From positions 22,225 through 86,224 of the forward strand of contig JAHLWP010000015.1 in the NCBI GenBank assembly GCA_019057865.1: DNA of 64,000 nt. Direction: 5' to 3'. Every line of letters begins with the position of its first letter. Position 1 is the stretch's first letter. This document shows positions 4,452-64,000 of the stretch, in pieces. The notes under the pieces are model-generated. The model was not told the origin of the DNA and did no database searches. It worked only from the letters and a program-made list of their open reading frames with translations. The position numbers and the translations under genes are program-made. The stretch is from Promethearchaeota archaeon (lineage in GTDB: Archaea; Asgardarchaeota; Lokiarchaeia; Sigyniarchaeales; SOKP01).

Positions 4452-5702
4452 TTATGGAAAAATACCTCTTAATTCAACAGCTTTTGCTACTCGAGAAAGA
4501 GCAATAATATAAGCGGCTGTCCTTAAGATTAAATTCTTCTCTTTTGAGATTTTGTACACGTTTTCAAATGCATCTACAATAATTTTTTTTAATTCTTTAT
4601 TGACACGATCTAAACTCCAAAAGTAACTGTGTATATCTTGAATATATTCAAAATAAGATACGCAAACACCACCCGCATTAGCCAAAATATCTGGAATCAC
4701 AAAGATTCCTTTATTATGTAGAATTTTATCTGCTTCTGGAGTTGTTGGACCATTTGCACCTTCTAAAATAATCTTACAATTTATTTTATCAGCATTAATA
4801 TTAGTTATTTGATTCTCCAAAGCTGCTGGAACCAACACGTCGCATTTTGTAGTAAGTAATTCTTCGTTTGAAATATGCTTATAATTATTTTTGTTAAAGT
4901 CTCTTAAAAATTTTCCTTGATCTCTCCATTCTAATAATTCTTTAATGTTTAAACCTTTTTCTGAATAAATTCCACCGAAGATATCTGAAACTGCAAATAT
5001 TTTACTACCATAGTTATATAATATGTTAGCAATCCATCCTCCAACATTCCCAAATCCTTGAATTATAATGCTCATGGATTTCAAATCGTAATTTAATTTA
5101 TTACATAATGCTTCAAGCACATAAAACATGCCCATACCAGTAGCACTATCTCTACCCACAGATCCTCCTATTTCTATTGGTTTTCCAGTAACAACTCCAG
5201 GTATAGTTCGTCCTTTTTGCATGCTATATACGTCCATGATCCATGCCATGATTTGTGCATTAGTATTAACATCTGGTGCAGGGATATCGATATCTGGACC
5301 AATAAAATTTATAATTTCAGCTGTATATCTTCTCGTAAGTCTTTCTAACTCTTTTTTAGATAATTTTAAAGGATCTACGAATATACCTCCTTTTGCTCCT
5401 CCAAAAGGTAAATTCAAGAGACTACTTTTCCAAGTCATCCATATTGCTAAAGCCTTTACTTCATCAAGAGTAACATTTAGAGAATATCGTATACCTCCTT
5501 TCCCAGGTCCTCTAATTGTTGAATGATGAACTCTATATCCTTCAAAAATTTTCAACTTACCATCATCCATCATAATCGGAATAGAAACAATTAGGGAGCG
5601 TTCTATCCGCTTTAAATATGGAACAATATTTGAGTCCAAATCCATAACTTCTGCTACAATATCTATCTGTTTTTTTGCCATTTCATAAGGATTTATAGCT
5701 AT
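4452..5702 (-). CDS. gdhA: Glu/Leu/Phe/Val dehydrogenase (glutamate dehydrogenase); probable ATA start at 5702 (first ATG 5681)
   Basis: KGGIRY, MTWK, GGAKGG, DIPAPD, GFGNVG, EGANGP, NAGGV; the conserved NPYE motif lies upstream of the first ATG. Confidence 0.92.
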   Translation of the reverse strand: MAINPYEMAKKQIDIVAEVMDLDSNIVPYLKRIERSLIVSIPIMMDDGKLKIFEGYRVHHSTIRGPGKGGIRYSLNVTLDEVKALAIWMTWKSSLLNLPFGGAKGGIFVDPLKLSKKELERLTRRYTAEIINFIGPDIDIPAPDVNTNAQIMAWIMDVYSMQKGRTIPGVVTGKPIEIGGSVGRDSATGMGMFYVLEALCNKLNYDLKSMSIIIQGFGNVGGWIANILYNYGSKIFAVSDIFGGIYSEKGLNIKELLEWRDQGKFLRDFNKNNYKHISNEELLTTKCDVLVPAALENQITNINADKINCKIILEGANGPTTPEADKILHNKGIFVIPDILANAGGVCVSYFEYIQDIHSYFWSLDRVNKELKKIIVDAFENVYKISKEKNLILRTAAYIIALSRVAKAVELRGIFP

Positions 5703-5749
5703 TTTATTTCACCTTAAGATTTTTTCATAATAAATTAAAATTTAAGCAA

Positions 5750-7000
5750 TTAGGGAAATAATCCTCTTAATTCATGTGCTTTAGCTAATCTTTTTGCGCC
5801 AATAGCGAATGCTGCTATCCTAAGTGAAGTATTCATTTTTTTTGATAAATTATATACATCCTCAAAAGTTTTAATAATAATATTTTTCATTTCTCTATTA
5901 ACACGATCTAATCCCCAGAAATAACTGTGTATATCTTGAATATATTCAAAATATGAAACACATACTCCCCCGCTATTTGCAAGAATATCTGGAACGATAA
6001 TTACGCCCTTCTCATTCAAGATGGCGTCCGCTTGGGAAGTTGTTGGACTATTTGCGCCTTCCAATATGATTTTACAATCTATATTATCAGCATTTTTACT
6101 GTAAATTTGATTCTCAACCGCAGCAGGGATCAAGACATCACATTTTAAACTAAGTAATTCATCATTGGTTATAGTACTAATATTTTTTCCATTATAATCT
6201 TTAAGTGAATTCCCTTGTTGCTTCCATTTAATTATTTCGTTAATATCTAATCCGTCTGGTGAGTATATCCCTCCTTGTTTTTCAGAAACTGCAATGACAT
6301 TACATGAAATTTCACATAACTGTTTAGCAACAACCGATCCCACTTTTCCAAATCCTTGAATCACAATTTTCATTTTTTTTAAATCAAAATTTAGTTTCTG
6401 GCAAATGTGTTTAAGTAGATAACCCATTCCAGTTCCAGGGGCTTCAAGTCTTCCAACAGAACCCCCTATTTCAATTGGTTTACCAGTTACTACGCTTGGG
6501 ATAGTTCGACCCTTTTGCATACTATATGTATCCATGATCCAAGCCATTGTGGTTGAATCAGTATACATATCTGGTGCTGGAATATCTATATCTGGGCCAA
6601 TCATACTTATGATTTCAGCAGTATATCTTCTAGTCAATCGTTCTAATTCTTTTTTCGATAATTCTTTAGTATCTACGCAAACTCCCCCTTTAGATCCTCC
6701 TAAAGGTAAATTTAAAAGACTTGTCTTAAATGTCATTAAAAACGCTAAAGCTTTAATTTCGTCAAGAGTAACATCTGGAGAATATCTTAAACCTCCTTTT
6801 GCTGGACCTCGTAAAGTTGAATGATGAACTCTGTAACCTTCAAAAATTTTAAGAAAACCATCATCCATAACTATAGGGATGGAAACTATTAGTGAACGTT
6901 CAACCTTTTTTAGATATTCTAAAGTATTTGGATTTAAATTTATTAGTTCCGCAGCAATATCAAGTTTCTTTTTAGCACTTTCAAACGGATTTATTATCAA
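5750..7000 (-). CDS. gdhA: Glutamate dehydrogenase paralogue
   Basis: KGGLRY, MTFK, GGSKGG, DIPAPD, GFGKVG; start TTG 7000 (or 7018). Confidence 0.9.
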   Translation of the reverse strand: MIINPFESAKKKLDIAAELINLNPNTLEYLKKVERSLIVSIPIVMDDGFLKIFEGYRVHHSTLRGPAKGGLRYSPDVTLDEIKALAFLMTFKTSLLNLPLGGSKGGVCVDTKELSKKELERLTRRYTAEIISMIGPDIDIPAPDMYTDSTTMAWIMDTYSMQKGRTIPSVVTGKPIEIGGSVGRLEAPGTGMGYLLKHICQKLNFDLKKMKIVIQGFGKVGSVVAKQLCEISCNVIAVSEKQGGIYSPDGLDINEIIKWKQQGNSLKDYNGKNISTITNDELLSLKCDVLIPAAVENQIYSKNADNIDCKIILEGANSPTTSQADAILNEKGVIIVPDILANSGGVCVSYFEYIQDIHSYFWGLDRVNREMKNIIIKTFEDVYNLSKKMNTSLRIAAFAIGAKRLAKAHELRGLFP

Positions 7001-7156
7001 TATTTTCACAATATACAATTATTTTTATGATAATTAACTTAAATTGTGATCAATATTTAAAATTAAATTTTTTTTAAAAAAATTAGGATTTATTTGTAGA
7101 GAATATGTTTTTGTTTAATAAATTCTTAAAATTTATAAAAAATTTTCATCTAAAAA

Positions 7157-8422
7157 TTATAACCAACCACGTAATTGCATAGCATCTACAACCCTCCCAA
7201 CTGCTATTATATAAGCACCCATTCGATTGTGAGTATTATATTCTTTTGCTTTATCAACTGTAGAACGATATGCCTTAGTCATCACACGATCCAAAGCTGT
7301 AAATACTTCCTTTTCATCCCAGAAATATTGATAATATCCTTGGACCATTTCGAAATATGAAACAGTAACTCCTCCCGCATTACATAAAAAGTCAGGAATC
7401 ACGAAAATTTCATTCTTAGATAAAATTTGATCTCCTGCAGGTGTAGTTGGTCCATTTGCAAGTTCTGCAACAATCTTACAATTTAATTTTTCTGCATTCT
7501 TTCGTGTTATAACATTTTCAAGTGCAGCAGGAATTAAAATATCACATTCTAATTCTAATAATTCTTCATTGGTTATCATTTGAGCATCTTTTAGACCTAC
7601 CAATGTTGATGTTTTTTCCTTTTGAACCAAAGCCTTGTTAGGATCGATACCATCCTTATTATATATTCCACCCTTGGAATCAGATATTGCAATAATTTTA
7701 CAATTAAAATCTTGCGTTAAGATTTTAGAAGCCCAAGATCCGGCATTTCCAAATCCTTGTATAACTACCTTTGCACCATTTAGATTTAATTCGATATCTT
7801 TTGCAGCTTCTCTAATACAAAACGCGCCACCTTTAGCTGTCGAGATTAGACGTCCAGCACTTCCACCTAAAGGCAAAGGTTTTCCAGTAATTACAGCAGG
7901 TGCATGTTTACGCATAATTGTTTCGTATTCATCCATCATCCACGCCATAATCTGAGGGTTAGTATAAACATCAGGTGCAGGTACATCAATTGAAGGTCCA
8001 ATTATATCAGCTAATTTTCTAATATAATTTCTTGCAAGTATTTCAAGTTCTCTATTACTCATCTCTTTAGGAGTACAAATAATTCCTCCTTTAGCACCTC
8101 CTAATGGAATATCCACACAGGCACATTTCCAAGTCATCCAAGCAGATAGAGCTTTAACAAGAGCAGCACTTTCATCGGGATGCCATCTAATTCCCCCTTT
8201 CATTGGCCCTCTCGCTGAGTTATATTGACTCCTAAAACCCTTAAATGTTTGCAAAGATCCATTGTCCATTCTCATAGTTATTTTTATTTCGACAAATCTT
8301 TCTGGCTGATTCAAAGCCTTATAAATTTCTCTATCACAACTCATTAACTTACAGGCTGTGTAAAGCTGAATTTGAGAAATCTGAAAAGGATCTAAATTTT
8401 CACTATCTTTTAACTTTTCCAT
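7157..8422 (-). CDS. gdhA: Glutamate dehydrogenase (archaeal type)
   Basis: GPMKGGIRWHP, MTWKC, GGAKGG, DVPAPDV, GFGNAG, ELANGP, C-terminal LRGWL. Confidence 0.93.
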   Translation of the reverse strand: MEKLKDSENLDPFQISQIQLYTACKLMSCDREIYKALNQPERFVEIKITMRMDNGSLQTFKGFRSQYNSARGPMKGGIRWHPDESAALVKALSAWMTWKCACVDIPLGGAKGGIICTPKEMSNRELEILARNYIRKLADIIGPSIDVPAPDVYTNPQIMAWMMDEYETIMRKHAPAVITGKPLPLGGSAGRLISTAKGGAFCIREAAKDIELNLNGAKVVIQGFGNAGSWASKILTQDFNCKIIAISDSKGGIYNKDGIDPNKALVQKEKTSTLVGLKDAQMITNEELLELECDILIPAALENVITRKNAEKLNCKIVAELANGPTTPAGDQILSKNEIFVIPDFLCNAGGVTVSYFEMVQGYYQYFWDEKEVFTALDRVMTKAYRSTVDKAKEYNTHNRMGAYIIAVGRVVDAMQLRGWL

Positions 8423-8429
8423 AATTTAG

Positions 8430-11162: not shown

Positions 11163-11163
11163 C

Positions 11164-12048
11164 CTATGATACCTCACGTTCATATTTTTCTAAAGCTCTA
11201 CATTCCTCCTCATAACATTCTAAAGATTCTTTTTCTTGAGCAAGAAATCTATTAGCGCGTTTTAGTAGATTATCAAAATTAACAATATGTCCATCAACAT
11301 CAGGACCATCTACACACGCAAATTGGATATCTCCATCAATAGTGGAAAAACGACAACCTCCACACATTCCAGTTCCATCAATCATAATAGTATTCAAAGA
11401 AACATAAGTCTTTACTTTAGGTAAATCACCAGATCCATTAGTAGTAAGAGCGACAAATTTCATCATGATTAGAGGTCCAATCGCAATTACAATACTAATT
11501 TTCTCTCTTTTTAGTATATCTTTAAGTGGTTCAGTAACAACTCCCTTCCTTCCTTCAGTCCCATCATCAGTACAAATGATTAATTCATCACTTACAGAAC
11601 GCATTTTTTCTCTCCAAAATAGTAAACTTGTGTTTCTTGCACCCATTATTGTAATTATTTTATTTCCTGCTTCCTTTAATTCTTTCACTTGAGGATAACA
11701 TGGAGCAATTCCAACACCACCCCCAATTATTATTACAGGAAATTCATACTTTTGAATGTGAATTCTATTTCCTAAAGGTCCAACAACATCAAGGATCTTA
11801 TCACCTACATTTTGATGAGACAATAATTTAGTACTTTTCCCGATAACCTGAAAAACAATAGTTATTATTCCTTTTTCTCTGTTATAATCTGCGATTGTTA
11901 ATGGAAATCTTTCACCAGTTTCATTTATTCTTAATAATATGAAATTTCCAGCATATGCTTTTTGAGCGATTAGTGGAGTGTGAAGAACCATTTCGAATAG
12001 TAATCCACTAGTCCCAAATTCCCTTTTCTCTAATATTTCATATGGCAA
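11164..12048 (-). CDS. nfnA: NfnS (NfnA/SudB-like) FAD/[2Fe-2S] subunit of NADH-dependent ferredoxin:NADP+ oxidoreductase
   Basis: GERFPLTIAD, GPLG, GGGVGIAP, TDDG, DGTGMCGGCR, CVDGP. Confidence 0.88.
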   Translation of the reverse strand: MPYEILEKREFGTSGLLFEMVLHTPLIAQKAYAGNFILLRINETGERFPLTIADYNREKGIITIVFQVIGKSTKLLSHQNVGDKILDVVGPLGNRIHIQKYEFPVIIIGGGVGIAPCYPQVKELKEAGNKIITIMGARNTSLLFWREKMRSVSDELIICTDDGTEGRKGVVTEPLKDILKREKISIVIAIGPLIMMKFVALTTNGSGDLPKVKTYVSLNTIMIDGTGMCGGCRFSTIDGDIQFACVDGPDVDGHIVNFDNLLKRANRFLAQEKESLECYEEECRALEKYEREVS

Positions 12049-12242
12049 TTTTACTACATTTAGTTTGGTAAATTAACGGTTTAAATTCCTTTCTTAAAAT
12101 TTAAGAATTAATTAAATTTTTTTAAATTATTGATTATGAAAAAGAGGAAACCATTTGGTTAAAAATTATTTACAGAATATAAGTTTTAAATATTTAAAAT
12201 ATTAAAAAAAATTGAAATTTTAAAAAGAAAAATAGTACATAT

Positions 12243-28648: not shown

Positions 28649-28933
28649 TTAGAGTTGATAGTCTCTTCTTAACCCAATAAGGGTTGTTGTTGCTTCAGTC
28701 CATTGTTGTAACTCCTCATCACTTCTAAAAAAAGAGATAATTTTTTCCATATCTTCTAGGTTATTAATAACACATTCTACTAACAAATCCCACGCTCCGT
28801 ATAATGGGGTTGCGTATGTAATTTTCCAATCCTCATCCGAGCTAATCGGTCTTAATTGCTGTATTTTTTCAATAACTTTCAGCTGAGTCCCAATTATTTT
28901 TAGCCGGATTAGAATATATCCACGAAAATAAAT
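28649..28933 (-). CDS. Stand-alone Lrp/AsnC ligand-binding (RAM) domain protein, 94 aa, ATT start; missing from the ORF track
   Basis: (M)YFRGYILIRL...YATPLYGAWDLLVEC...TEATTTLI; in-frame TAA 8 codons upstream; GGTG 8 nt before ATT. Confidence 0.8.
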   Translation of the reverse strand: MYFRGYILIRLKIIGTQLKVIEKIQQLRPISSDEDWKITYATPLYGAWDLLVECVINNLEDMEKIISFFRSDEELQQWTEATTTLIGLRRDYQL

Positions 28934-29036
28934 TTTAAGAGCACCGTGATTGTTTTACGTAGAATATTAATATATTAGTTTTAATCTTAATTAATAATTT
29001 TTTAATAAGCACTTAAATTTGGTTTTTCATAATGAT

Positions 29037-36904: not shown

Positions 36905-37459
36905 TTATTTTTTTGGTTTGAAAATTATTGCCGGTTTAGTTCTCTCAGAATAAGTAAAATTATCTGCTTCTTTAATGTCGCCATATTTTGCTTTAAGTTC
37001 TTCTAAATTACCGGCATAGAGAGCTCTAGGTCGGCATGTCTGAACACATACTGGTATTTTATTTTCTAAGTTTCTATCTAAACAAAAAGTGCACTTTCGC
37101 ATCTTCGCTCCTTTTTGGGGTCCAAATTGTGGCGCATCGTAAGGACATGCCTTTAAGCATTTAGAATCACATTCCTCATTACCTAAGCATTTAATGCTAT
37201 CCACAATTACTATTCCATCTTCTCCTCTTTTTGTTATAGCATTAACAGGACAAACAGGGATGCAGACAGGATCTTCGCAATGATAACATGGTCTTATTAA
37301 ATAACTTACAAAAACATTTGGAGTCTTTCCTTTTTCGTTATATAGTACGTTCATCCAAAATTCTGGTCCTGCCGTAACGTCATTCCAATCTTTGCAGGCG
37401 ACTATGCATGCAGCACATCCTGTACATCGCGTTTGATCAAAATAGAAACCAATCTGCAT
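36905..37459 (-). CDS. DmsB-like 4x[4Fe-4S] electron-transfer subunit
   Basis: FDQTRCTGCAACIVACKDWN, CYHCEDPVC..VCP, CLKACPY, KCTFC, CVQTC. Confidence 0.9.
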   Translation of the reverse strand: MQIGFYFDQTRCTGCAACIVACKDWNDVTAGPEFWMNVLYNEKGKTPNVFVSYLIRPCYHCEDPVCIPVCPVNAITKRGEDGIVIVDSIKCLGNEECDSKCLKACPYDAPQFGPQKGAKMRKCTFCLDRNLENKIPVCVQTCRPRALYAGNLEELKAKYGDIKEADNFTYSERTKPAIIFKPKK

Positions 37460-37460
37460 T

Positions 37461-39710
37461 TTATTTCACCTCCGGTTTATCTTTGCTTACTTGAACAAGA
37501 CAAGTTTTTAAACAACAAGCCCCATCAGGAGCATAAGCATTTTTAGTCAAAGTATTGGGACAGCCACCTCTATCAATCCCTTCCTCATCGGGAGTATACC
37601 ATGCACCTTCATGGATGACTATAACTCCAGGAATAATCCGTTCCGTAACCCATGCTTCAATTGATAAAATCCCTCTATCATTATAAACATATATTAAATC
37701 TCCTGTCTTAATATCCCTAGGTTCAGCATCAATGGAATTAATCCAACACCTATGATGATCAACCTCTTTAAGCCATTCAACATGGTATAATTCGGAATGA
37801 ACTCTATTCTTAGGGTGCGGAGAAAGCATTTGTAATGGATATTTTTCAATTAATGAATCAAATCTATCTTCCCAAGTACTTAAATATTTAGGAATAGGGG
37901 GTAAATTGGGATCATTTATATCAGCTACTCGTTGTGAAAAGATTTCAATCTTTCCTGAAGGCGTCTTGAAAGGATTGTTTTCAGGGTCTTCTATTTGTTT
38001 TTTAAACGCCACATAGGGTTCGTCTAATTTTACTCTCCAAATTCCATCTTCTTTATATTTATCGTAATCGGTGACATGCTCTTTAATATCTTTGGTCCCT
38101 CTCCAAAACCTTTTTAATTGCCTAGTTTCATCATAATGTTTAAAATCTTCAATACCTAACCTTACTGCGAGTTCCTCAGCAATAGTTATATCATGCTTGC
38201 ACTCTCCTACTAGTTCAATAGCTTTATTCATGTATCCAAAATATGGTCCAGATGGCCAAGGTCGAGTTAAATCAGATCTTTCTGCCATACTAGTTGTTGG
38301 TAATACGATGTCTGCATACCTGGCTGTTGGTGTCATGAATTTTTCAACACTAACCATATATTCGAGCTTTTTTAATGCTTCTGCATTGTGATTAGTATTA
38401 CCTAACTGATTTAAAAAATTATTACCGCAAAACCATCCAAATTTGATGTCGTATGGATAACCACCTTCCTTACCTTCTAAAATCTGATCAAACATCTTAT
38501 TAGTATGAACCCTTGTGCGTAAGCGATGTTTTAAGTTCACTGATCCTCGTACTGAAATTCTATCAGGATGGTTTTCTTCAACCGGATTCCTACTTGGAGG
38601 TAAAATGAATGGTCCAAAAAACATGTGAGCTATTGGAATACCCATTAATCCTCCACAAGCAGCACCACCTTTTCGTCCAACATTTCCAGTCATTGCAGAT
38701 AATGTCATAGCAGCTCTATTATATTGTCCACCCATTGCACTGCGTGCTGGACCTTGACAGTCCATTAACGCCGCTGGTTTAGTGGTTGCATATTCACGAG
38801 CTAATTCTCTGATCGTTTCTGCTAGTACGTTGCAGATCTTTTCAGCCCATTCAGGTGTTTTTTCAACATCGTCTTCTTCTCCCATTACATATTCCTTAAA
38901 TTTCTCAAATCCAACCGTATATTTATCCAAGAACAATTGGTCATGAAGATTTTCTTTTATCATTACATTAGCCATGGCAACCATCATTGTCACATCAGTA
39001 CCTGGTACAATAGGAATCCATTTGTCAGCTACAACAACATCTGTATCTGAGTATTTAGGATTAATACTTATAACTTTAGCACCTTTTTCATGTGCTTTTA
39101 TAAGATAATACAAAGCATCTGTTCCTGAATTCATTCTCGCTGGATTCCAGCCCCATAATATAATTAATTTTGAATTTAACATATCTTCCCGGCTATGACC
39201 CACAAAAGGAGATGCATATTGAGTCATTGTCGCCCAAACAGCACCCTCAGAGGATACATTTCCATGATGCGTGGAGAAACCACCAAAATGGGTAAATAAT
39301 CTAATCATTGCGAGTATAGGATGATGATATGCGCCGATATAACCACCACCCATAGGAAGAAATATTGCTTCATTACCATATTTTTCTTTAGTATATTTAA
39401 GTTTTTCAGCTATTTCAACCAATGCTTCATCCCATGAAATGCGTTTAAACTTACCCTCTCCTTTTAGTCCGACTCTCTTCAGTGGATACTTAAGCCTTTC
39501 TGGATGGTAAATCTCTTTTCGAAGAGCGCGACATTTTAAGCAGGTCCTAAGTTGGTTTTCTTCATCAGCTAAGTCATCCCCCTCAACACGGATAATTTTA
39601 CCATTCTTTACATGAAATTTAATAGGACAACGTCCTCCACAATCGAATGCTGATGTAGTCCTTATAAACTTAATTTCATTAGCTTCCTGTTGTTCTTTTT
39701 GATTTTCCAT
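37461..39710 (-). CDS. DMSO-reductase-family molybdopterin oxidoreductase (DmsA-like, no Tat signal)
   Basis: DCGGRC, RLKYPLKR, ISWDEA, WGWNP, PGTD, TARYADIVLP, TPSGKIEI. Confidence 0.92.
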   Translation of the reverse strand: MENQKEQQEANEIKFIRTTSAFDCGGRCPIKFHVKNGKIIRVEGDDLADEENQLRTCLKCRALRKEIYHPERLKYPLKRVGLKGEGKFKRISWDEALVEIAEKLKYTKEKYGNEAIFLPMGGGYIGAYHHPILAMIRLFTHFGGFSTHHGNVSSEGAVWATMTQYASPFVGHSREDMLNSKLIILWGWNPARMNSGTDALYYLIKAHEKGAKVISINPKYSDTDVVVADKWIPIVPGTDVTMMVAMANVMIKENLHDQLFLDKYTVGFEKFKEYVMGEEDDVEKTPEWAEKICNVLAETIRELAREYATTKPAALMDCQGPARSAMGGQYNRAAMTLSAMTGNVGRKGGAACGGLMGIPIAHMFFGPFILPPSRNPVEENHPDRISVRGSVNLKHRLRTRVHTNKMFDQILEGKEGGYPYDIKFGWFCGNNFLNQLGNTNHNAEALKKLEYMVSVEKFMTPTARYADIVLPTTSMAERSDLTRPWPSGPYFGYMNKAIELVGECKHDITIAEELAVRLGIEDFKHYDETRQLKRFWRGTKDIKEHVTDYDKYKEDGIWRVKLDEPYVAFKKQIEDPENNPFKTPSGKIEIFSQRVADINDPNLPPIPKYLSTWEDRFDSLIEKYPLQMLSPHPKNRVHSELYHVEWLKEVDHHRCWINSIDAEPRDIKTGDLIYVYNDRGILSIEAWVTERIIPGVIVIHEGAWYTPDEEGIDRGGCPNTLTKNAYAPDGACCLKTCLVQVSKDKPEVK

Positions 39711-39821
39711 AAAATCATCTTGTATATAATTGTAATATTTTTAGATGTATTAGTTATTAAATTTTTATAATTACATGTAAGTTAACCCTGTAATTACTAT
39801 TATTATTTTTAATGAGCTAAT

Positions 39822-39845
39822 ATGTATCTTATATACGAGATACAT
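39822..39845. promoter_or_regulatory. Inverted repeat ATGTATCT-N8-AGATACAT in the divergent promoter of the two molybdoenzyme operons
   Basis: Perfect 8-bp arms, roughly central in the spacer. Confidence 0.45.
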
Positions 39846-39942
39846 TCATTAAGAATAATTATTTCATAAAAATTATTTAAAAACTGTATATTTTTTCTAG
39901 TTAAAATTTATCTTAAAATAAAAAAAATTAAGTGAAATAAAA

Positions 39943-42207
39943 ATAAAAGAGAATAACATCAATATAATTAAAACTGGTTGTTGTCATGACTGTGGTGGAC
40001 GATGTGTTCTTAGAGTACATGTTAAAGATGGTAAAATCATAAGAATTGAAACTGACAATGGAGAAGAACCTCAATTAAGAGCCTGTGTACGTGGAAGAGC
40101 CTATAGACAAAGAGTTTATTCCCCAGATAGACTAAGATATCCTCTGCGCCGTAGTGGTGAACGAGGTGAAGATAAATTTGAACGGATTTCATGGGATGAA
40201 GCTCTTGAAATAGTCGCTTCCAAACTTATAGAAATTAAGGAAAAATATGGTAATTCCGCTATACTATTGGTTCCAGGTGGTGGAAACCAGGGGATGATTC
40301 ATGGAATCATACCAATTGCTATAATGTTACATCAAATTGGAGGATATACTAGAATGTGGGGAGCTCCTTCATATGAAGGGGCATTATTTGCCTCGATGGC
40401 GACTTATGGAACAATGATGACTGGTAATGCGCGTGAAGATCTATTAAATTCAAAACTCATTATTATGTGGGGCTGGAATCCTGCTAACACAATTTGGGAA
40501 CCTGGAACAAGTCTAATGTTAGCTAAAACTAAAGAGAAAGGAATTAAAATAATAGCTATAGATCCTATCTTTACAGATTCAGCGGCAATACTTGCTAATC
40601 AATGGATTCCAATTCGACCAGGTACTGATACGGCAATATTAATTGCGATGGCTTACACAATTATTAAAGAAAATCTTCAGGATCAAGCCTTTTTAGATAA
40701 ATATACTGTTGGATTTGATAAATTCAAGGAATATGTAATGGGAGAAGAAGACGGTGTTGAAAAAACACCACAATGGGCAGAGAAAATTACATCTGTACCT
40801 TCAGAGGTTATTGAAGACTTAGCACGGGAATATGCCACTTCTAAACCAGCGGCTCTTATAGCAGGGTGGGGTCCTGCGAGAACTGCCTTTGGAGAACAAT
40901 ATTCCCGCGCTGCTAATGTGCTTTGTGCTATTACAGGGAACATTGGAATTAATGGGGGTTATGCCTCTGGTTTTATGAGAGCATATTATAGTCGTGAGCG
41001 GATAGTACCTGGAGGGAAAAAAACGAGAGATATTTCTACTATAGAAGAAATGCCAAAAAAACCAAGATTACAAGATAATCCGGTTGATTTTAGGGCTCCA
41101 CCTCGTAAAGATGCTTTATATAAAATAAAAGGTGGGACAAATCCTGCAAACACTAGAATTCACTATAATGATTATTATGAAGCAATTCTACAAGGAAAAA
41201 AAGCAGGTTACCCTGCTGATATTAAAATGGCTTATATTGCAGGAACAAACCGATTAAACCAGTTTAGTAATGTAAATAAAGGTGTTAAAGCTTTTAAATC
41301 ACTTGAATTTATAGTTATTCATGAACAATTTTTGACACCTACAGCGAAATTTGCTGACATTATTTTGCCAGTAAATACTTTCATGGAACGTAATGATGCT
41401 GCTGTCCCTTGGCTTGGTTCTCCTTATTATATTTATTTGAATAAAGCTATTGATTCCATGTATGAATCAAAATCTGATCTAGAAATATGCCGGGAGCTTT
41501 TAAAAAGAATGGGTATTAAATCAAGTCTTTTAGATCTGAATGAGGATCAAATATTAAGGCTATTTATAGCTCCACGAAAGGACATTAAAAATTATAATAA
41601 AATGAGAAGAGATGGTTATTATAAAGTTAAAGTTGAGGAGCCATTTGTAGCATTTAAAGATCAAATAGAGGATCCTGAGAACAAACCCTTTCCTACTTTA
41701 TCAGGCAAAATTGAAATATATTGTGAACATATAGCAGAAAAAAATATTCCCTTAATGCCACCAATTCCAAAATATTTTAGTCATGATGAACATTATGACT
41801 CTCCAAAAGCTAATAAATATCCTTTACAACTTATTACACCTCATAATAAAAGGAGAACCCATTCAACATTAAATATGATCCCATGGTTGGAAGAAATAGA
41901 ACCACATGCGGTTTGGATTAATCCAGAGGATGCAAAACCAAGAAAAATCAATGAAGGAGATTTAGTAGACATTTATAATGATAGAGGTAGAATTCGAATT
42001 CCTGCTAAAGTTACAGAGAGGGTAATACCTGGAGTTGTAGTAGTATATCAAGGGAGCTGGTATAATCCTAATAAGGAGGGAGTGGATCTTGGAGGGTGTG
42101 CTAATGTATTAACAAACGATGTTCACTCTCCGGGTGGGGCTTTTCCAATGAATAGTAATCTTGTGCAAGTAGAATTATACGTAAAAAAACAAGCTGAGGG
42201 ATTGTAA
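39943..42207 (+). CDS. Second DmsA-like molybdopterin oxidoreductase; N-terminal Fe-S domain lies upstream of the first standard start codon (probable ATA start)
   Basis: Frame open from 39922 encodes KTGCCHDCGGRCVLRVHVKDGKI...RACVRG...DRLRYPLRR...ISWDEA; no ATG/GTG/TTG before 40267. Confidence 0.88.
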   Translation: MKENNINIIKTGCCHDCGGRCVLRVHVKDGKIIRIETDNGEEPQLRACVRGRAYRQRVYSPDRLRYPLRRSGERGEDKFERISWDEALEIVASKLIEIKEKYGNSAILLVPGGGNQGMIHGIIPIAIMLHQIGGYTRMWGAPSYEGALFASMATYGTMMTGNAREDLLNSKLIIMWGWNPANTIWEPGTSLMLAKTKEKGIKIIAIDPIFTDSAAILANQWIPIRPGTDTAILIAMAYTIIKENLQDQAFLDKYTVGFDKFKEYVMGEEDGVEKTPQWAEKITSVPSEVIEDLAREYATSKPAALIAGWGPARTAFGEQYSRAANVLCAITGNIGINGGYASGFMRAYYSRERIVPGGKKTRDISTIEEMPKKPRLQDNPVDFRAPPRKDALYKIKGGTNPANTRIHYNDYYEAILQGKKAGYPADIKMAYIAGTNRLNQFSNVNKGVKAFKSLEFIVIHEQFLTPTAKFADIILPVNTFMERNDAAVPWLGSPYYIYLNKAIDSMYESKSDLEICRELLKRMGIKSSLLDLNEDQILRLFIAPRKDIKNYNKMRRDGYYKVKVEEPFVAFKDQIEDPENKPFPTLSGKIEIYCEHIAEKNIPLMPPIPKYFSHDEHYDSPKANKYPLQLITPHNKRRTHSTLNMIPWLEEIEPHAVWINPEDAKPRKINEGDLVDIYNDRGRIRIPAKVTERVIPGVVVVYQGSWYNPNKEGVDLGGCANVLTNDVHSPGGAFPMNSNLVQVELYVKKQAEGL

Positions 42208-46168: not shown

Positions 46169-47008
46169 ATGTCTGGATTAGATCTTGATGTGATAGGTAA
46201 AAAATTTCCAGAGGTGACTTTTAAATATAATTGGAAAGATGTAGTACTTTATGCTTTAGGGATTGGGGCTCAAGTTGATGAGTTACAGTTTTTATATGAA
46301 GGGGTCTCTGGAGGATTAAAAATTTTCCCCAGTTACGCTTGTATAGTGGGAGGGGCAGGTCTTCAGCTTAATAGGCTTGGTAAAATAGCTTTTTCGCACT
46401 TTGTTCATGGGGAACAATCAATTAAGATTCATAAATCATTTTCTTCGTCAGGTGAAATAATTTGTCAAGGTGAAGTTGAAAATATCTTTGATAAAGGAAA
46501 AGCTGCTGTTATCCACATGAAAGTTTCAGGTCATAAGACAGGAGGTGAACCTATATTTGATACAAAATGGGTATTTTTTTATCTTAAGGGAGGAGGATTT
46601 GGAGGGGACCCAGGTCCTAAAACTGAACCATTAGATCCTCCTGAAGGGGTAGAACCAGATTTTAGTATATCCTATAAAACTAATGAAAATCAAGCTGCTT
46701 TGTATAGACTTAACGGAGATTTAAATCCTTTACATATAGATCCTGAATTTGCCAGTAGAAGTGGGAGATTTAAGGGACCAATCCTCCATGGATTATGTAC
46801 ATATGGTTTTGCAACACGTGCTATAATTTATGGTGCTTGTAATGGAGAGGTGGAACGATTTAAAGAATTCAAAGCACGATTTACAAGCGAAGTATATCCT
46901 GGAGAAACTCTAACCACGGAAGGCTGGAAAGATAATGGCCATTATTTAATTCAGGTTCGAACAGAAAGAGCTGTTGTTCTTGGAAACGCATATGCTATCG
47001 TAGAATGA
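46169..47008 (+). CDS. MaoC-like double hot-dog (R)-specific enoyl-CoA hydratase 2 (MFE-2-like)
   Basis: LYALGIGA, HGEQ, DKGKAA, YRLNGDLNPLHIDP, ILHGLCTYG, VYPGE. Confidence 0.9.
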   Translation: MSGLDLDVIGKKFPEVTFKYNWKDVVLYALGIGAQVDELQFLYEGVSGGLKIFPSYACIVGGAGLQLNRLGKIAFSHFVHGEQSIKIHKSFSSSGEIICQGEVENIFDKGKAAVIHMKVSGHKTGGEPIFDTKWVFFYLKGGGFGGDPGPKTEPLDPPEGVEPDFSISYKTNENQAALYRLNGDLNPLHIDPEFASRSGRFKGPILHGLCTYGFATRAIIYGACNGEVERFKEFKARFTSEVYPGETLTTEGWKDNGHYLIQVRTERAVVLGNAYAIVE

Positions 47009-54543: not shown

Positions 54544-54586
54544 AGTTACATTTTCAACCTGCTCTTAATTAAAAATTAAATTTAAT

Positions 54587-57168: not shown

Positions 57169-57228
57169 AATACAAATTTCATTCTAATTCCAATTAAATA
57201 TTAACAATAATAAAAAGAAAGAAAATAA

Positions 57229-58941
57229 TTATAAAACTCCCATTGAACCCATTAATTTCGTGGTATCTGGGGTATCGAAATCTATTTTGATATCTAAAAC
57301 TGCTGGTTTACCAGAATTTTTAGCTCGTTCGAACGCTGGTTTAATTTCATTAGGCTCAGTAACAACTTCGCCGTAACAACCAAAACCTTCTGCACATTTG
57401 GCATAATTGAATTCAGGAAGATCAACATCAATATATCGTTTACCCATAAATAATTTCTGACCTGACTTGATCATCCCCCATGCATTATTATTTCCTACGA
57501 CATATATAAGGTTTTTTAAGTTTAATCTAACGGCAGTTTCTAAATCTTGAACATTAATCATAAAAGCACCATCTCCAGCTATAGCAACTACTTGTTTATC
57601 TGGTTTTGCTAGTTTTGCCCCAATTCCATAAGGAACAGCAGTACCTAACTGCCCCATTCCAACAGCACTGAGTGTTGAAAGTGGTGGACGTATTTTATAC
57701 CAATCTATTTGCTCGACAGTAGAAACTGCAATATCTCCACCGTCTAATATAAGGATAGCATCATCATCTATAGATTCTAAGATATCCTTAATCAATCTCT
57801 TTGTTATAATAGGTATTTTGTCTTTTGATACCTTTTTGTTTATTTTGTTAATTGTATTCTGCCGAGTTTGAACAAGTTCCTCTAACCAATCTCTTTTATC
57901 TACTTTTTTAGACTTTTTAACTTCATTAAGTATTTGAATTAAAAATTGTTTGCAATCTCCAACTATACCTAAAGTAATTGGTTTTGAACGTCCGATTATT
58001 GAGGGATCAATATCTACTTGTATTAATTTTTGTGAGTTTTTCCAAAATGGTTCTTCTCCATGTCCTAAAGTATATGAAAATTTACATCCTAATGCTAATA
58101 TAACATCTGCTTCTGGGGCAATTTTTAAACCAGGACCAGCTACTGCAGCACCCATTAAACATTTTGATTCATTTGTGATAGTTCCAATACCCATAACTGT
58201 AGTTATTACTGGAATTTGCAGGTATTCAGCAAATCCTTGTAATTCTTTCCAAGATTCTGATCTCGCAACACCTCCTCCAGATAAAATGAGTGGTTTTTCT
58301 GCTTTCGAAATTAGATCTAATGCACTTTTTATTAACTCATGATTTATTGCTGGTTTTTCAATAGAGCGATATCTTTTTAAGTCAAAGAATTGTATTTTCT
58401 CCTCTTCAATTTCTTCTAAAAATGCATCTTCAAAAATTTCTAGCAATACAGGTTGTGGTCGACCTCCTATAGCTTCTCGAAATACTTTGTGAACAGCATC
58501 AGGAATTTCTTCAATTTTTCGAATGCTTTTTTGATATTTTGTAACTGGTTTATACATTGTTATTTGATCAAGATTTCCTTGCAAAGTAAAAGAATCTTGA
58601 AATTTAGAAATCACCTGAGGTACTATTGTAATTACTGGTATATTATCTGCCCAGGCAGCACCTACCCCCGAAATTAAATTTAATGCTCCAGGACCAACTG
58701 TTCCAAAACATATACCGGGATTATTTGTTACTCTAGCCCATGCATCAGCAGCATGAGCAGCAGCAGCTTCATGTCTAAATAATACAGTTTCTATACCTTG
58801 TTCCCTTCCCCATCGGTATATAGCATCATACATATTTAAAAATTGACCCCCAGGAATGCCAAACATATACTTAACATTTTCTTTTTGGAGACATTTTACC
58901 AAAACATCTCCACCATTAATTATCTTTTTTTCTTCTCCCAC
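57229..58941 (-). CDS. Thiamine-diphosphate-dependent enzyme (ALS/2-hydroxyacyl-CoA lyase superfamily)
   Basis: FGIPGG, RHE, GPG..N, GDGAF...NNNAWG ThDP motif. Confidence 0.88.
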   Translation of the reverse strand: MGEEKKIINGGDVLVKCLQKENVKYMFGIPGGQFLNMYDAIYRWGREQGIETVLFRHEAAAAHAADAWARVTNNPGICFGTVGPGALNLISGVGAAWADNIPVITIVPQVISKFQDSFTLQGNLDQITMYKPVTKYQKSIRKIEEIPDAVHKVFREAIGGRPQPVLLEIFEDAFLEEIEEEKIQFFDLKRYRSIEKPAINHELIKSALDLISKAEKPLILSGGGVARSESWKELQGFAEYLQIPVITTVMGIGTITNESKCLMGAAVAGPGLKIAPEADVILALGCKFSYTLGHGEEPFWKNSQKLIQVDIDPSIIGRSKPITLGIVGDCKQFLIQILNEVKKSKKVDKRDWLEELVQTRQNTINKINKKVSKDKIPIITKRLIKDILESIDDDAILILDGGDIAVSTVEQIDWYKIRPPLSTLSAVGMGQLGTAVPYGIGAKLAKPDKQVVAIAGDGAFMINVQDLETAVRLNLKNLIYVVGNNNAWGMIKSGQKLFMGKRYIDVDLPEFNYAKCAEGFGCYGEVVTEPNEIKPAFERAKNSGKPAVLDIKIDFDTPDTTKLMGSMGVL

Positions 58942-59089
58942 TTGTTACACCTTTTTAAAAAATATAAAGCATTTTATACAATATTTTTTTATTTAAATAA
59001 ATTATAAATTATTTAACTATTAAAAATAAAGAATTATGAATTTTAAATGTTCCAAAGAGTGTTTTAAAAATTTCCAATAATTTCTAAGA

Positions 59090-60076
59090 TTAATATCTGA
59101 AAACCTTTAAAGAATCCAAAAATGATTTCAGCGAATTAGGAACTTTAAGAACTTTATTATGTATAAAATTTAAAGTCTTAAGTGAATTAAGTGAGCCGAT
59201 TATTTGAGGAATTTCTTCAAATTTATTATAACTCAAATCCAATACTTCAAGATAATTTAGTCTTCCTAGTGATTCTGGAATATTTTTTAGTTTACTTCGC
59301 CTTAAAATTAATTTTTTGAGGTGAGTTAACACTCCAATTGATTCCGGAATTTCTTGAATTTGATTATAACCAAAATTATATTTATTGATTGAATTGAAAT
59401 ATATATCTAAATATTTTAATTTGTAAAGAGAATTGACAATATCAGGATTTTCTTTAACCCATTTCCAATTATAATAATTGAAATTCAAAATTTTAACATG
59501 TTTGTTTCTAATGACTAACCATGGCTCACCTCCCTTTACATCACTTAAATTTTGAAAAAATTTAAAACTATCAGGATTAATTTCATAGTTCTTTTTACCT
59601 TTCGCAATTAGAGCTTCAATATCCAAAAAGAATCTCAATTCTTCAGGAATAATACCTAAATTCTTTGAAAATTTAATACTCCAATGTTTTAGTTTATGTT
59701 TAATTGATTTGAATTCTTGGTTATTTGAATTTTTAAAATAATCAAAAATTATTTTCAGAACTAAAGGAGATTTATCATGTTCAACGACCCACTCTAACAG
59801 AGATAACCCGTTATCAATAAAATTGTGAATAACTCCTTTTACTGCTGAAGTCCTCACTATTGCATTTTCATCTGAGACAAGACAGTTCTCAAGAATTTTA
59901 AAGATTTTATTCCCTGTGCACCCTATTTTATCTAATGTTTCTATAGATTCTGATCTAATTTTAGCATCATCGCTACTCTCGATTAATGATAGTAAAAGTT
60001 CTAAAGCTTTTTTTTTACTTAATTCTCCAACGTGAAAAGATTTGTTAATTATTTTTGGTGATAAAGGCTCTCTCAT
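59090..60076 (-). CDS. HEAT-repeat + leucine-rich-repeat protein
   Basis: N-terminal D..IR/DEN..VR HEAT motifs; C-terminal IPESIG.L..LK.L.L LRRs. Confidence 0.8.
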   Translation of the reverse strand: MREPLSPKIINKSFHVGELSKKKALELLLSLIESSDDAKIRSESIETLDKIGCTGNKIFKILENCLVSDENAIVRTSAVKGVIHNFIDNGLSLLEWVVEHDKSPLVLKIIFDYFKNSNNQEFKSIKHKLKHWSIKFSKNLGIIPEELRFFLDIEALIAKGKKNYEINPDSFKFFQNLSDVKGGEPWLVIRNKHVKILNFNYYNWKWVKENPDIVNSLYKLKYLDIYFNSINKYNFGYNQIQEIPESIGVLTHLKKLILRRSKLKNIPESLGRLNYLEVLDLSYNKFEEIPQIIGSLNSLKTLNFIHNKVLKVPNSLKSFLDSLKVFRY

Positions 60077-60502
60077 CTATAACCTTAATTCTAGTGAAAT
60101 TATTTAATATTACAACATTAATTTAAAAATTTTTATAAGTTTCCAAATCTAATTATGAAAAAATGGGAAGTAGTAAAAAAGATTATTTTTTTGTTAAAAC
60201 CTTTGAGTCAATTTTTTTAAACTTTTTATCTTTTTGCAGCTTTGCTGATTTAAAATATTGATCGATATAATTTTCTTGAGACATTATTATAACAATTTTT
60301 TTTTGAGATATGAGCAAATAAATAAGGTTATAAATAGCATACATTGTTTAGAATTTCTTTTAAACTTCTTTAAAAATTAAATCTTTTACTTGTTTTTAGG
60401 AAAAATGTTAAAATAAAAAATAGGGTGTTAACTAATATTATTGTATTAATTTCAAATTTGAAAATACATAAAAATTTTAAATAAAAGATTTGGTGGATAG
60501 AA

Positions 60503-62038
60503 ATTCGTACTTATGAGCAATATATTGAAGATTTGAAGAAAATGAAACCCAATATATACATAGGGGATGAAAAAGTTGATCGCCAGGATTACAGGCTTAA
60601 GGGAGGCATGCGAATAATGAAAGAGACTTTTGACAGAGCCCATGATCCTGAATGGGAGGATTTATGTACAGCAACTTCACATATAACAGGAAAAAAGATT
60701 AACCGATTTACCCATATACATCAAAGTGAAGATGATCTACTAAAAAAGCAACTTATGACTCGCCGACTCTGTCATCGGACTGGAGGATGCATTCAGAGGT
60801 GTATGGGTATTGATGCTTTAAATGCTCTCTCGGTTATAACCTATGAACTCGATGAAGCATTAGGAACTGATCATTATCAGCGATTTTTAAAATATTTGGA
60901 ATATTTCCAAGAAAATGATCTTGTTGCAAGTTGTGCTCAAACTGATGCAAAGGGAGATCGATTAAAACGACCGCACCAACAAGAGGATCCCGATCAATAT
61001 CTTCGTGTAATTGAATCAAGAGAAGATGGCATAGTTGTTAGGGGATGTAAACTTAATATTACTAATACTCCATATGCGGATGAATTTGTGGTTGTTCCAT
61101 GCAGATATATGGGTCCAGAAGATAAGGATTATGCTGTTGCTTTTGCTTTACCATCAGATTGGGAGGGTGTCAAACTCTTAACAAGACCTGCATATATTAA
61201 AGAACCCAAACATTTAGAAATTCCCCACTCTGCACTTGGAGATGCTGAAACGTTCATTATTTTTGATGACGTATTTGTCCCGAAAGAGAGAGTATTTCTT
61301 AATGGTCACGGAGATCCCAGACAAACACCTTATGCTGGATTTTTAGCACTTATGTTTGCTCATTATCATAGACACAGTTATACTGGTTGCAAACCTGCTA
61401 TGTCAGAAGTTATAGGAAGTGCAGCAGCATTAGTTGCGGAATATAATGGTATAGAAAACACTTCTCATGTGCGAGATAAACTTTCACACATAATTGGTAC
61501 TGCAGAATTAGTTTTTGCTGCTGGAGAGTCAAGTGCTAAGCATTCAGAAAAAGCACCTTCAGGAACACAAGTACCTGATGAGATTTTAACTAATGCTGGA
61601 AGAAGGCTTGCTGGGGAAATGATATATGAAGAATATAAGATATTAGCTGATCTTTCTGGAGGCTTAATTGCAACATTACCCTTTGAAGATTCCTTCTTTA
61701 ATGAAGAAGTTGGAGAGCTTGCTATGAAATATTTAACGAGAAATCCTCGTGTTAAACCAGAAAATATTTACAGATGCTTTAAAGGTATTGAAAATCTTGC
61801 AGTATCAGATTTAGCAGGATTAATGCAAGTAGCAGGACTTCATGGTGGAGGAAGCCCTCAAATGGAAACTATAACTATGATGATGAGATATGATGTTGAA
61901 AGACTTAAGGATATCGCTAAATATCTCTTCGGAATTAAATCTAAACTTAAACCTTATGAAAGACCAACTGTGACTCCCCGAAAACAACTTGAAAAGTTTA
62001 GAGCAGCAATGTTAAGAAAGAAGGAACAGAATCTTTAA
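60503..62038 (+). CDS. 4-hydroxybutyryl-CoA dehydratase-like flavo-Fe-S enzyme (AbfD/HpaB family); probable ATT start
   Basis: GGCIQRCMG.DA and HRHSYTGCK Fe-S ligand motifs, TDAKGDR, HGGGSP; N-terminus (M)RTYEQYIEDLKKM. Confidence 0.88.
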   Translation: MRTYEQYIEDLKKMKPNIYIGDEKVDRQDYRLKGGMRIMKETFDRAHDPEWEDLCTATSHITGKKINRFTHIHQSEDDLLKKQLMTRRLCHRTGGCIQRCMGIDALNALSVITYELDEALGTDHYQRFLKYLEYFQENDLVASCAQTDAKGDRLKRPHQQEDPDQYLRVIESREDGIVVRGCKLNITNTPYADEFVVVPCRYMGPEDKDYAVAFALPSDWEGVKLLTRPAYIKEPKHLEIPHSALGDAETFIIFDDVFVPKERVFLNGHGDPRQTPYAGFLALMFAHYHRHSYTGCKPAMSEVIGSAAALVAEYNGIENTSHVRDKLSHIIGTAELVFAAGESSAKHSEKAPSGTQVPDEILTNAGRRLAGEMIYEEYKILADLSGGLIATLPFEDSFFNEEVGELAMKYLTRNPRVKPENIYRCFKGIENLAVSDLAGLMQVAGLHGGGSPQMETITMMMRYDVERLKDIAKYLFGIKSKLKPYERPTVTPRKQLEKFRAAMLRKKEQNL

Positions 62039-62103
62039 ATTCAATTTAAGTAATTTTTTTATTTTTTAATTGAAATGCTATGTTAATTAACTATTGAATA
62101 TCA

Positions 62104-63066
62104 TTATAATACACACAATACAAAAGTTTGACTTTCTGTAAGTAAATTAAGAGTTATTTTCTTATCCTTTTTTATGAACTGATTAATTGGAATTCCTTTT
62201 TCATAGATTTCTCTAAATTTATCATTAAAAATTTGATAAATATTTTTATTTCTAGAAATATAAGCCCCAATTAAAATATTAGTTGGATCAAAACTGGGTT
62301 GGATAAGTTCATTATCAGTTAAACTAAAATTGCTGAAATTCTCATCAGTTACATGAATATCAAATGTTTTGAATTCTAAATGGAAATTTTCCACATGTTT
62401 TGATAAAATTTCGAATTCTTTGCTCTCTAATAGCTCCTTTACTACCTCTGAATTGAAAATAACCTGTATCTCTATGTTTTTAAGGTTTTCCTTAATTCTT
62501 TTCATTCCTGTAGCCATATCATCTTTAATATCATCAGGAATCCCCTTAATTTGATGTTTTTGAATTAAGGAAATTAATGGATTATCATACCTAATTCCAA
62601 CTGCAATTTTACATAATTTTGGTGCTAAAAATGAGTAGTATGTTTCAGCAAAATTTTTAATATTATAATTTATAAACTCAACAGGTTCTTGAACAACTTG
62701 TTCTTCTAGATTATACTTTCTTATGAATTCTTCAATGGAAGTTTCACATTTACTTTGCTTTTCAAGAAATTGATTTTGAAGTGCTTCAATTCTTTTATTG
62801 ATCAATTTTTGCCAAAGTGTAAGCACTGGAGTTGCTATATGGACTTTCATAGGGCGATCATAAGTCTGAACAAGTTCCAAATCATTTAATACCGAACAAA
62901 TTTTATAACCTCTTTTTAAGGAGAGATTAAATTGATTACATACTTGCTTTAAATCATCAATTCTCTTATTCAGTAATAGATAGTGGTAAATCCTCTCTAT
63001 TCCCTTTTCGATAATGCCAATTGAATCGAATAATTGGCTCAGAGTTAAAAATTCGGTATCTTCCAT
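62104..63066 (-). CDS. TrmB-like transcriptional regulator (N-terminal wHTH)
   Basis: IG.....ERIYHYLL...LKRGYKICSVL..LELV....RPMK wHTH; coiled coil; C-terminal PLD-like effector region. Confidence 0.6.
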   Translation of the reverse strand: MEDTEFLTLSQLFDSIGIIEKGIERIYHYLLLNKRIDDLKQVCNQFNLSLKRGYKICSVLNDLELVQTYDRPMKVHIATPVLTLWQKLINKRIEALQNQFLEKQSKCETSIEEFIRKYNLEEQVVQEPVEFINYNIKNFAETYYSFLAPKLCKIAVGIRYDNPLISLIQKHQIKGIPDDIKDDMATGMKRIKENLKNIEIQVIFNSEVVKELLESKEFEILSKHVENFHLEFKTFDIHVTDENFSNFSLTDNELIQPSFDPTNILIGAYISRNKNIYQIFNDKFREIYEKGIPINQFIKKDKKITLNLLTESQTFVLCVL

Positions 63067-63070
63067 TTAA

Positions 63071-63601
63071 TCACCTATTACCAGTTCGTTCTAAAGTTAG
63101 TTCAGTCAGGACATTAAAAGACTTCTCAACATTTAGATTTTCTTTAGCGGAGATTTCAGCATAACTCGCCATTTTATTTTTTTCAGCAATTTGAATACCA
63201 TATTCTCTTGGAACTTGGCGTTGGGTATTTTCAAGATCTATTTTCGAGCCAACTAGCATAATAGGTATAGGACCTCCTTTTTGTCTCACAATTGTAATCC
63301 ATTCAGAGATATTATCTAACGTAGATGGTCTTGTAATATCATATAAGAGAAATGCAGCATTTGCCCCTAGACAGTAGGTTGGTAAAAGGAATCGAAACCT
63401 TTCTTCTCCCCCCACATCCCAAATTTGGAGCTTTATCTTTTTACCCATGAGATCAATTGTTTTTACATGGAAATCCACTCCAATAGTTAACCGCTCAGAG
63501 GGATTAAAAATATTATAACAATACCTCTTGGTAAATGAAGTCTTTCCAACGCTAGCATCTCCTAACAAAAGAATTTTAAAAGTATAATCATAATTTGAAA
63601 T
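63071..63601 (-). CDS. Rab-like small GTPase; probable ATT start
   Basis: (M)SNYDYTFKILLLGDASVGKT, TIGVDF, KLQIWD, RFR, YDIT, SKID, EISAK. Confidence 0.92.
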   Translation of the reverse strand: MSNYDYTFKILLLGDASVGKTSFTKRYCYNIFNPSERLTIGVDFHVKTIDLMGKKIKLQIWDVGGEERFRFLLPTYCLGANAAFLLYDITRPSTLDNISEWITIVRQKGGPIPIMLVGSKIDLENTQRQVPREYGIQIAEKNKMASYAEISAKENLNVEKSFNVLTELTLERTGNR

Positions 63602-64000
63602 TTTTATACACCCAAGTTATAATTTAGTTATATTTTTTGATAAAATTTAATTTTCTGTCAATTTCACTAAAATTTTGTTTTCGTTTAATTAATATTTCAA
63701 TTAATGTATTTTTATGTTATTATACCACTCTTGTATATCTTTAATAAAGTGCACATTTTTAAATATAGTTTGAAAAATTTTTGTACAGATTTTCAGCACA
63801 TATATTGTTTAAGATCTCAATTTAAAAAATTTTTCATATGGATAAGATTTTACTTTAAATCCTTCAGTTAAATGTCTATAGTATTATTAATATTACGTAA
63901 AATCTGATAATATTAAATTAAAATAAAGAATAAAATAAAAAATTCGGGTATAATACCTTTTAGGTCATGGTGAAAAATAAACTTTTAGTCAAACGCACTC

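Follow-up and report, generated by a model that had tools for sequence, protein, structure and literature searches.

Five genes in a 64,000-nt stretch of contig JAHLWP010000015.1 (assembly GCA_019057865.1) from an uncultured, Loki-type Promethearchaeota archaeon of the Asgard group, here called the window, very probably start at the near-cognate codons ATT or ATA behind a Shine-Dalgarno (SD) motif, as do other genes across the same genome that use ATT, ATA or ATC (together ATH). The source genome, G000, comprises 4.26 Mb in 87 contigs and has a GC content of 29%. ATT, ATA, ATC and CTG are minor initiators in NCBI table 11, and gene callers of the Prodigal type permit only ATG, GTG and TTG as starts. 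An initial annotation of the window had proposed recurrent ATT and ATA starts behind SD motifs. This core claim, and the recurrence of such starts in the lineage, was borne out by codon alignments of orthologues and by an enrichment of ATH behind SD motifs that was controlled for spacer length and replicated in a second genome, and it was further backed by coding-type substitutions in long N-terminal extensions and by covariation of SD motif and start codon across 16 genes.

The five sites in the window belong to genes for a glutamate dehydrogenase (gdh), an AsnC-like protein, a DmsA-like oxidoreductase (dmsA-like), an AbfD/HpaB-family protein (abfD-like) and a small GTPase (Rab), and they matched their initial description base for base (Table 1). 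At all five, the spacer between the SD motif and ATT or ATA measured 6-8 nt, an in-frame stop lay upstream, and ATG, GTG and TTG were absent before the conserved or domain sequence, gdh being the weakest case. The canonical starts that had been put forward for comparison showed the same SD geometry (motif, spacer in nt, codon), with GGTGA-7-ATG at 46169, GGAGGTGA-6-ATG at 37459 and AGGTG-6-GTG at 58941. The frames of the five genes are intact over 750, 511, 416, 176 and 94 codons; Pfam supports the identity of four of them, and canonical starts would cut Pfam domains. For each protein we searched 30 relatives, 18 of them from the same genus, for orthologues, and then aligned the codons. In keeping with the initial proposal, ATH occupied the column of the homologues' first methionine (Met1), in which these carry ATG, GTG or TTG, in four of the five genes (abfD-like, Rab, gdh and AsnC-like), though not in dmsA-like.

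In abfD-like, a TAA lies upstream in frame (60482-60484), and the first canonical codon, TTG 60533, would as a start cost the protein the first eight positions of HpaB_N. ATT was found in the start column of 13 of 13 same-genus orthologues, behind GAGTGG, GAGTGA or AAGTGA and a spacer of 6 nt, with in-frame stops two to three codons upstream in two orthologues and within five codons in a further three. In paralogues and in other genera this column holds ATG (MRT.EEY), and the +10 codon of the orthologues is TTA or CTT, not TTG. Apparent internal stops in HpaB paralogues were discarded; they proved to be the true C-terminal stop read through. For Rab, the upstream in-frame stop is TAA 63619-63617, and translation from the first canonical codon (TTG 63568) would miss the beginning of the Ras fold. 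Fourteen orthologues have their ATG or TTG at the same column as the Rab ATT or one codon upstream, and a Rab of another family reads AGGTGA-6-ATA. In gdh, the upstream limit of the frame is set by an in-frame TGA within the SD motif itself (GGTGA, 5713-5709), and motif plus spacer (GGTGA-AATAAA) are identical to those at the canonical ATG 37459. In some ten paralogues and orthologues, an ATG or TTG preceded by AGGTGA-N6 stands in the column of the gdh ATA, while the closest orthologue has a TTG one codon upstream, with neither an SD motif nor a downstream ATG. The window contains three glutamate-dehydrogenase paralogues in tandem on the minus strand (4452-8422, namely 4452-5702, 5750-7018 and 7157-8422), the latter two sharing 67% and 44% identity with the first, and this array is also present in relatives.

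The smallest of the five genes encodes a conserved protein of 94 amino acids that resembles Lrp/AsnC-RAM proteins by eye. Its initial label as an AsnC-domain gene did not hold up in Pfam, as the match to PF01037 was not significant (E = 0.067; 13.5 bits, with a cut-off set at 25). A TAA is located eight codons upstream of the ATT, and the next canonical codon follows 49 codons downstream. Across 38 loci from named metagenome-assembled genomes (MAGs), the start column read ATT in 20, ATC in 7, ATA in 1 and ATG in 10; ATT or ATC was present at 29 of 30 same-genus loci. Of the 38 loci, 22 had a stop one to two codons upstream, and in 20 a stop two codons upstream was placed inside the spacer (GGTG-TAAGAA-ATT). 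All but one of the 28 ATH loci (27) carried GGTG 4-9 nt upstream, as against none of 10 ATG loci (p = 2e-8), a split that goes back to a single evolutionary event in the tree and thus counts once, not 38 times.

For dmsA-like, the initial annotation had held that the ATA restores about 108 amino acids with an Fe-S motif. Restoration of an Fe4S4 domain was confirmed by Pfam, whereas it is uncertain whether the gene starts at ATA 39943 or at ATT 39967. Following the in-frame TAA 39919-39921, the frame runs without ATG, GTG or TTG for 108 codons, until TTG 40267. According to Pfam, residues 10-60 form the Fe4S4 domain, and the Molybdopterin domain begins at residue 63; with a start at TTG 40267, the protein would be shorter by 108 amino acids, losing the whole Fe4S4 domain as well as 46 residues from the Molybdopterin domain. 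Relative to the homologues' Met1 column, the proposed ATA is shifted inward by 5-6 codons. A canonical start is absent in 6 of 11 same-genus orthologues, which retain frames of 750 codons, and the orthologues share a conserved ATA (39943 in the window) 7 nt behind (A/T)GTGA. The NCBI annotation of one orthologue starts at the ATT directly before KTGCC (39967 in the window); the NCBI pipeline therefore already calls some such starts. Of note, this is a different ATH from the one favoured by SD spacing. Public gene calls for the family are inconsistent: the public protein of the window gene is the 646-amino-acid TTG form, in line with the initial claim that gene callers truncate such genes, and those of relatives measure 707-730 amino acids, all of them without the Fe4S4 domain. 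An AT-rich spacer of 230 bp separates two DmsA-like paralogues (50% identity) in head-to-head orientation (window 37461-42207), and this pair, together with a nearby HpaB/AbfD paralogue, recurs in several relatives.

Table 1. Positions of the five genes, their SD motifs and one annotated orthologue start (window coordinates unless stated otherwise).
Feature	Position	Strand	Remarks
Glutamate dehydrogenase gene (gdh; ELFV_dehydrog_N + ELFV_dehydrog)	4452..5702	-	Pfam; start ATA 5702-5700
gdh SD GGTGA	5709..5713	-	6 nt before ATA 5702
Small conserved 94-aa gene (Lrp/AsnC-RAM-like by eye)	28649..28933	-	Start ATT 28933-28931
AsnC-like SD GGTG	28942..28945	-	8 nt before ATT 28933
DmsA-like molybdopterin oxidoreductase gene	39943..42207	+	Start ATA 39943; alternative ATT 39967
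dmsA-like SD AGTGA	39931-39935	+	7 nt before ATA 39943
AbfD/HpaB-family gene (abfD-like)	60503..62038	+	Start ATT 60503; Pfam HpaB_N from residue 3
abfD-like SD GGTGG	60492..60496	+	6 nt before ATT 60503
Rab/Ras-family small GTPase gene	63071..63601	-	Start ATT 63601-63599; Pfam Ras from residue 9
Rab SD GGGTG	63609..63613	-	7 nt before ATT 63601
dmsA orthologue, NCBI ATT start	L309:151-153 (JBHLMQ010000018.1, GCA_048938005.1)		Protein MKTGCCH...

Beyond the window, we analyzed non-overlapped open reading frames (ORFs) of at least 150 codons (3070 in G000), considering codons that lie between the upstream stop and the first canonical start and at least six codons before that start. A codon was scored as SD-led if a 5-mer of GGAGGTGAT ended 5-8 nt upstream, and spacers of 13-16 and 0-3 nt served as controls. 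In G000, the motif preceded 3.0% of ATT, 2.3% of ATA and 2.8% of ATC codons, as compared to 0.1-0.7% of AAA, AAT, TTA, TTT and TAT codons, with odds ratios of 3.7 for ATT (p = 6e-10), 2.6 for ATA (p = 2e-4) and 3.0 for ATC (p = 8e-3). The enrichment of ATH, 3-4-fold at SD distance, was absent at either control spacer. It was replicated in G006 (CP070831), a closed genome of the same genus of which 2.4 of 3.34 Mb (72%) entered the comparative counts, with an odds ratio of 3.9 for ATT (p = 1e-8). CTG was likewise overrepresented behind SD motifs at 5-8 nt (7 of 111 codons in G000 and G006 together, against a background of 0.74%; p = 2.5e-5), and for ACG an enrichment was uncertain. The resulting codon set of ATT, ATA, ATC and CTG is exactly the minor set of table 11. 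A small basic ribosomal-protein-like gene of G000 (C27:41966-42292, minus strand) reads AGGTG-7-CTG, and its aligned start in G006 reads AGGTG-7-ATC.

To compare the two genomes gene by gene, we used reciprocal best hits and removed antisense shadow ORFs, which left 1222 pairs. In 20 genes, at least 20 aligned codons preceded any canonical start in both G000 and G006. The third-position share of substitutions in these long extensions was 0.57, equal to that of gene bodies (untranslated regions, UTRs, 0.33), and the synonymous ratio was 0.39, again as in gene bodies (UTRs, 0.26), patterns that indicate purifying selection. A few of the 20 genes represent something else, for example an HdrA-like frame after a probable selenocysteine TGA.

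The same alignments revealed how SD motif and start codon vary together. Opposite 374 confident ATG starts of G006, the aligned G000 codon was ATG in 249 cases, TTG in 19, ATA in 10 and ATT in 9. The 19 ATH codons included 13 with a canonical codon within a few codons, which were dropped, leaving 6 clean cases. We then scored a 4-mer SD motif 5-9 nt upstream of the aligned start column in 16 clean pairs from different genes, each with ATH on one side and ATG or GTG on the other. Nine of the 16 pairs had the motif on the ATH side and one had it on the canonical side (p = 0.006), the baseline in canonical-canonical pairs being 25%; the gdh pair likewise has an SD motif on the ATH side and none on the canonical side. 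Thus, a strong SD motif tends to accompany ATH, and the opposite ATG or GTG column is usually without one.

In mechanistic terms, AUU, AUA and AUC should be read as methionine by the ordinary initiator tRNA through a third-base mismatch, with an SD-anti-SD duplex 5-8 nt upstream placing the near-cognate codon in the P site. Use of CTG would mean that the initiator tRNA also accepts a first-position mismatch, and start-codon proofreading by aIF1 would be set permissively. AT mutation pressure could convert SD-led ATG to ATH at little cost, SD strength and start-codon type would compensate for each other in evolution, and SD-led ATH initiation would constitute a regular, heritable mode in this AT-rich genus. 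The gene for aIF1, the sole SUI1-family gene in G000 (C77:24514-24729, minus strand, considered with about 85 nt upstream), has a frame that opens after a TGA; ATG, GTG and TTG are absent before the SUI1 domain, and the sequence reads AAA GAG AGT ATT, with ATT as the fourth codon. One could go further and envisage a regulated, two-state initiation code, in which genes would use either AUG with little or no SD motif or SD-anchored AUH or CUG, the permissive set-point being held by an AUU-started aIF1; we put this forward tentatively and consider it doubtful.

The ATH codons might also be true starts that are read cognately, by an initiator tRNA modified at C34 or by a second initiator-like tRNA, and not through relaxed proofreading. 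The joint enrichment of ATT, ATA and ATC speaks for such a reading, and animal mitochondria use AUA, AUU and AUC starts via a modified tRNA-Met (f5C34). The tRNA set of G000 was, moreover, poorly recovered: none of the 30 tRNAs detected by ARAGORN has a CAU anticodon, 28 matches were obtained with the Rfam tRNA model, and searches with anticodon-stem and acceptor patterns yielded nothing convincing as an initiator tRNA in this genome. Evidently, introns conceal the tRNA genes or the assembly lacks them. However, CTG, with its mismatch in the first position, is enriched as well, which fits a general tolerance of near-cognate codons better, and the strong SD dependence suggests a weak codon in need of help. 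We therefore regard cognate decoding as unlikely.

Several further observations, besides the failure to find an initiator tRNA, weigh against initiation at ATH. The gdh ATG 5681, located only seven codons downstream of the ATA, is the first canonical ATG and could serve as start. In dmsA-like, a TTA (39928-39930) fills the Met1 column, in which the closest relatives have ATG (MSEFKIE...), and ATH codons compete at 39937, 39943, 39964 and 39967. Genome-wide, 119 pairs with extensions of 5-19 codons are mostly non-coding in their substitution pattern (synonymous ratio 0.24-0.26), and the single origin of the SD/ATH split in the AsnC-like gene reduces its weight. The gdh ATG and the UTR-like short extensions would be expected if the first canonical codon further downstream were the start, with an untranslated remnant of a formerly longer gene, or a conserved leader, in front of it. 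Such a start would, however, deprive dmsA-like of its Fe4S4 domain and 46 catalytic-domain residues and the AsnC-like gene of half its length, and it is at odds with the TTA or CTT that abfD orthologues carry in place of TTG at codon +10. The coding-type substitutions in the long extensions argue against it as well, and an enrichment of ATH at exactly SD distance is not what it predicts. We consider this alternative very unlikely.

A third possibility is that AT mutation pressure has stripped the genes of their start codons and that they are now pseudogenes in decay, as might be suspected from the low GC content of the genome and from the TTA at the Met1 column of dmsA-like. The intact frames of all five genes contradict this, as do the purifying selection indicated by the substitution patterns and the retention of ATH in 13-28 independent assemblies, where ATT, ATC and ATA interchange with one another and with no other codons; decay is thus most improbable. 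That an AUG is supplied after transcription, by a spliced upstream mini-exon or by RNA editing, is scarcely credible, because ATH coincides with the homologues' Met1 column in four cases, so that no upstream residues are missing and neither an exon nor an edited start is necessary, because stops lie one to two codons upstream, within the SD spacer, and because enrichment at SD distance and SD covariation would be unexpected under splicing.

How widespread SD-led initiation at ATH might be was estimated from its excess over background, which, in the set of 3628 ORFs with 100 codons or more, came to 60-66 genes. The same SD motif was carried by 237 first canonical starts, and therefore about one in five strongly SD-led genes would start at ATH. 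We estimate the genome-wide share of ATH starts at about 2-5% of genes, the number of such genes most likely being roughly 60-150. The initial figure of one gene in ten fits the window (5 of about 55 genes), which would be a rich patch, but exceeds the genome-wide estimate. Since most short extensions are non-coding, naive counts overstate the frequency of ATH starts; a first value of 15-22% of pairs with upstream homology (at least 5 codons) was rejected as inflated by antisense shadow ORFs and AT-rich leaders. In the 119 pairs with short extensions, the 15-60 nt before the first canonical start show about 50% 'amino-acid' identity between the species along with a non-coding substitution pattern. 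These stretches are conserved AT-rich leaders or promoters that can be mistaken for N-terminal extensions.

In bacteria, SD-led AUU, AUA and AUC starts are known from few genes, such as infC and pcnB of E. coli and ebpA of Enterococcus faecalis (PMC4447247, PMC5499595), and mRNAs beginning with AUG, GUG, UUG, AUU or AUA have been compared in vitro (PMC5499595). As in these cases, the archaeal starts would combine a near-cognate codon with normal SD spacing, be read as the first methionine and be weaker than AUG. Unlike the bacterial handful of genes per genome, which is policed by IF3, the starts described here would make up about 2-5% of all genes and, within the SD-led fraction, about 20%, are conserved across species, covary with the SD motif and would be handled by aIF1/aIF1A/aIF2 machinery. 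The IF3 gene infC is autoregulated through its AUU start and eukaryotic eIF1 through a poor start context (PMC4705826); here, the gene of the proofreading factor, aIF1, is itself without a canonical start. In contrast to those systems, the genes in the window serve metabolism or encode a GTPase, and none of the five encodes a fidelity factor.

ATA, ATT and ATC starts are common in animal mitochondria (NCBI tables 2 and 5), which share with our case an AT-rich genome and frequent ATH starts. Mitochondria operate without SD motifs and with a single modified tRNA-Met, and AUA codes for methionine internally too, whereas in the present lineage internal ATA and ATT remain isoleucine and the starts depend on the SD motif. 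Among prokaryotes, proteogenomics uncovered non-canonical starts in Deinococcus deserti (PMC2830850), and ribosome profiling of Haloferax volcanii detected near-cognate alternative initiation sites that were set aside as possible false positives (PMC7261190). Both studies, like ours, point to a repertoire of start codons in prokaryotes that is broader than the one accepted by gene callers, but they concerned few genes or sites that were set aside, and a conserved, lineage-wide use was not reported. For the tubulin AtubA of a Heimdall-group Asgard archaeon, a single 'rare ATT start codon' has been inferred (PMC13394414). There, too, the deposited protein was too short, and an upstream ATT at a plausible distance from the ribosome-binding site restores the first beta strand; unlike the present analysis, this remark, made among the methods and on one gene, came without statistics, a study of conservation or an estimate of frequency. 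Archaeal reviews give the start codons as AUG, GUG and UUG (PMC7531240). Our literature search found no systematic report of ATH starts for Asgard or other archaea, AtubA being the only mention for Asgard archaea. From the comparative data, SD-led ATH starts appear to be a lineage-wide new form of a known event.

If this holds, several percent of the proteins in these Asgard MAGs should have been deposited in truncated form or missed, including small GTPases and other eukaryote-like proteins, because the callers are limited to ATG, GTG and TTG. Start-codon checking would seem relaxed in a close relative of eukaryotes, one of two options raised by the initial annotation, the other being a translational control layer, and aIF1/aIF2 machinery of the eukaryotic type could then run at a much more permissive set-point. 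The lineage would offer a natural system for studying what determines the stringency of start-codon selection, which is a core issue of eIF1 and eIF5 biology, as well as a clean example of two initiation signals in compensatory evolution under AT mutation pressure.

A separate observation concerns two conserved frames, shared by G000 and G006, that open directly after an in-frame TGA (G000 C23:7755-8306, minus strand, and C30:71516-72490, plus strand). Upstream of both lies conserved, coding-like sequence, which in one case reads ...RIGVYVC-TGA-GVNIGA and is HdrA-like. In both frames, the TGA is a candidate selenocysteine codon and would not point to a missing start.

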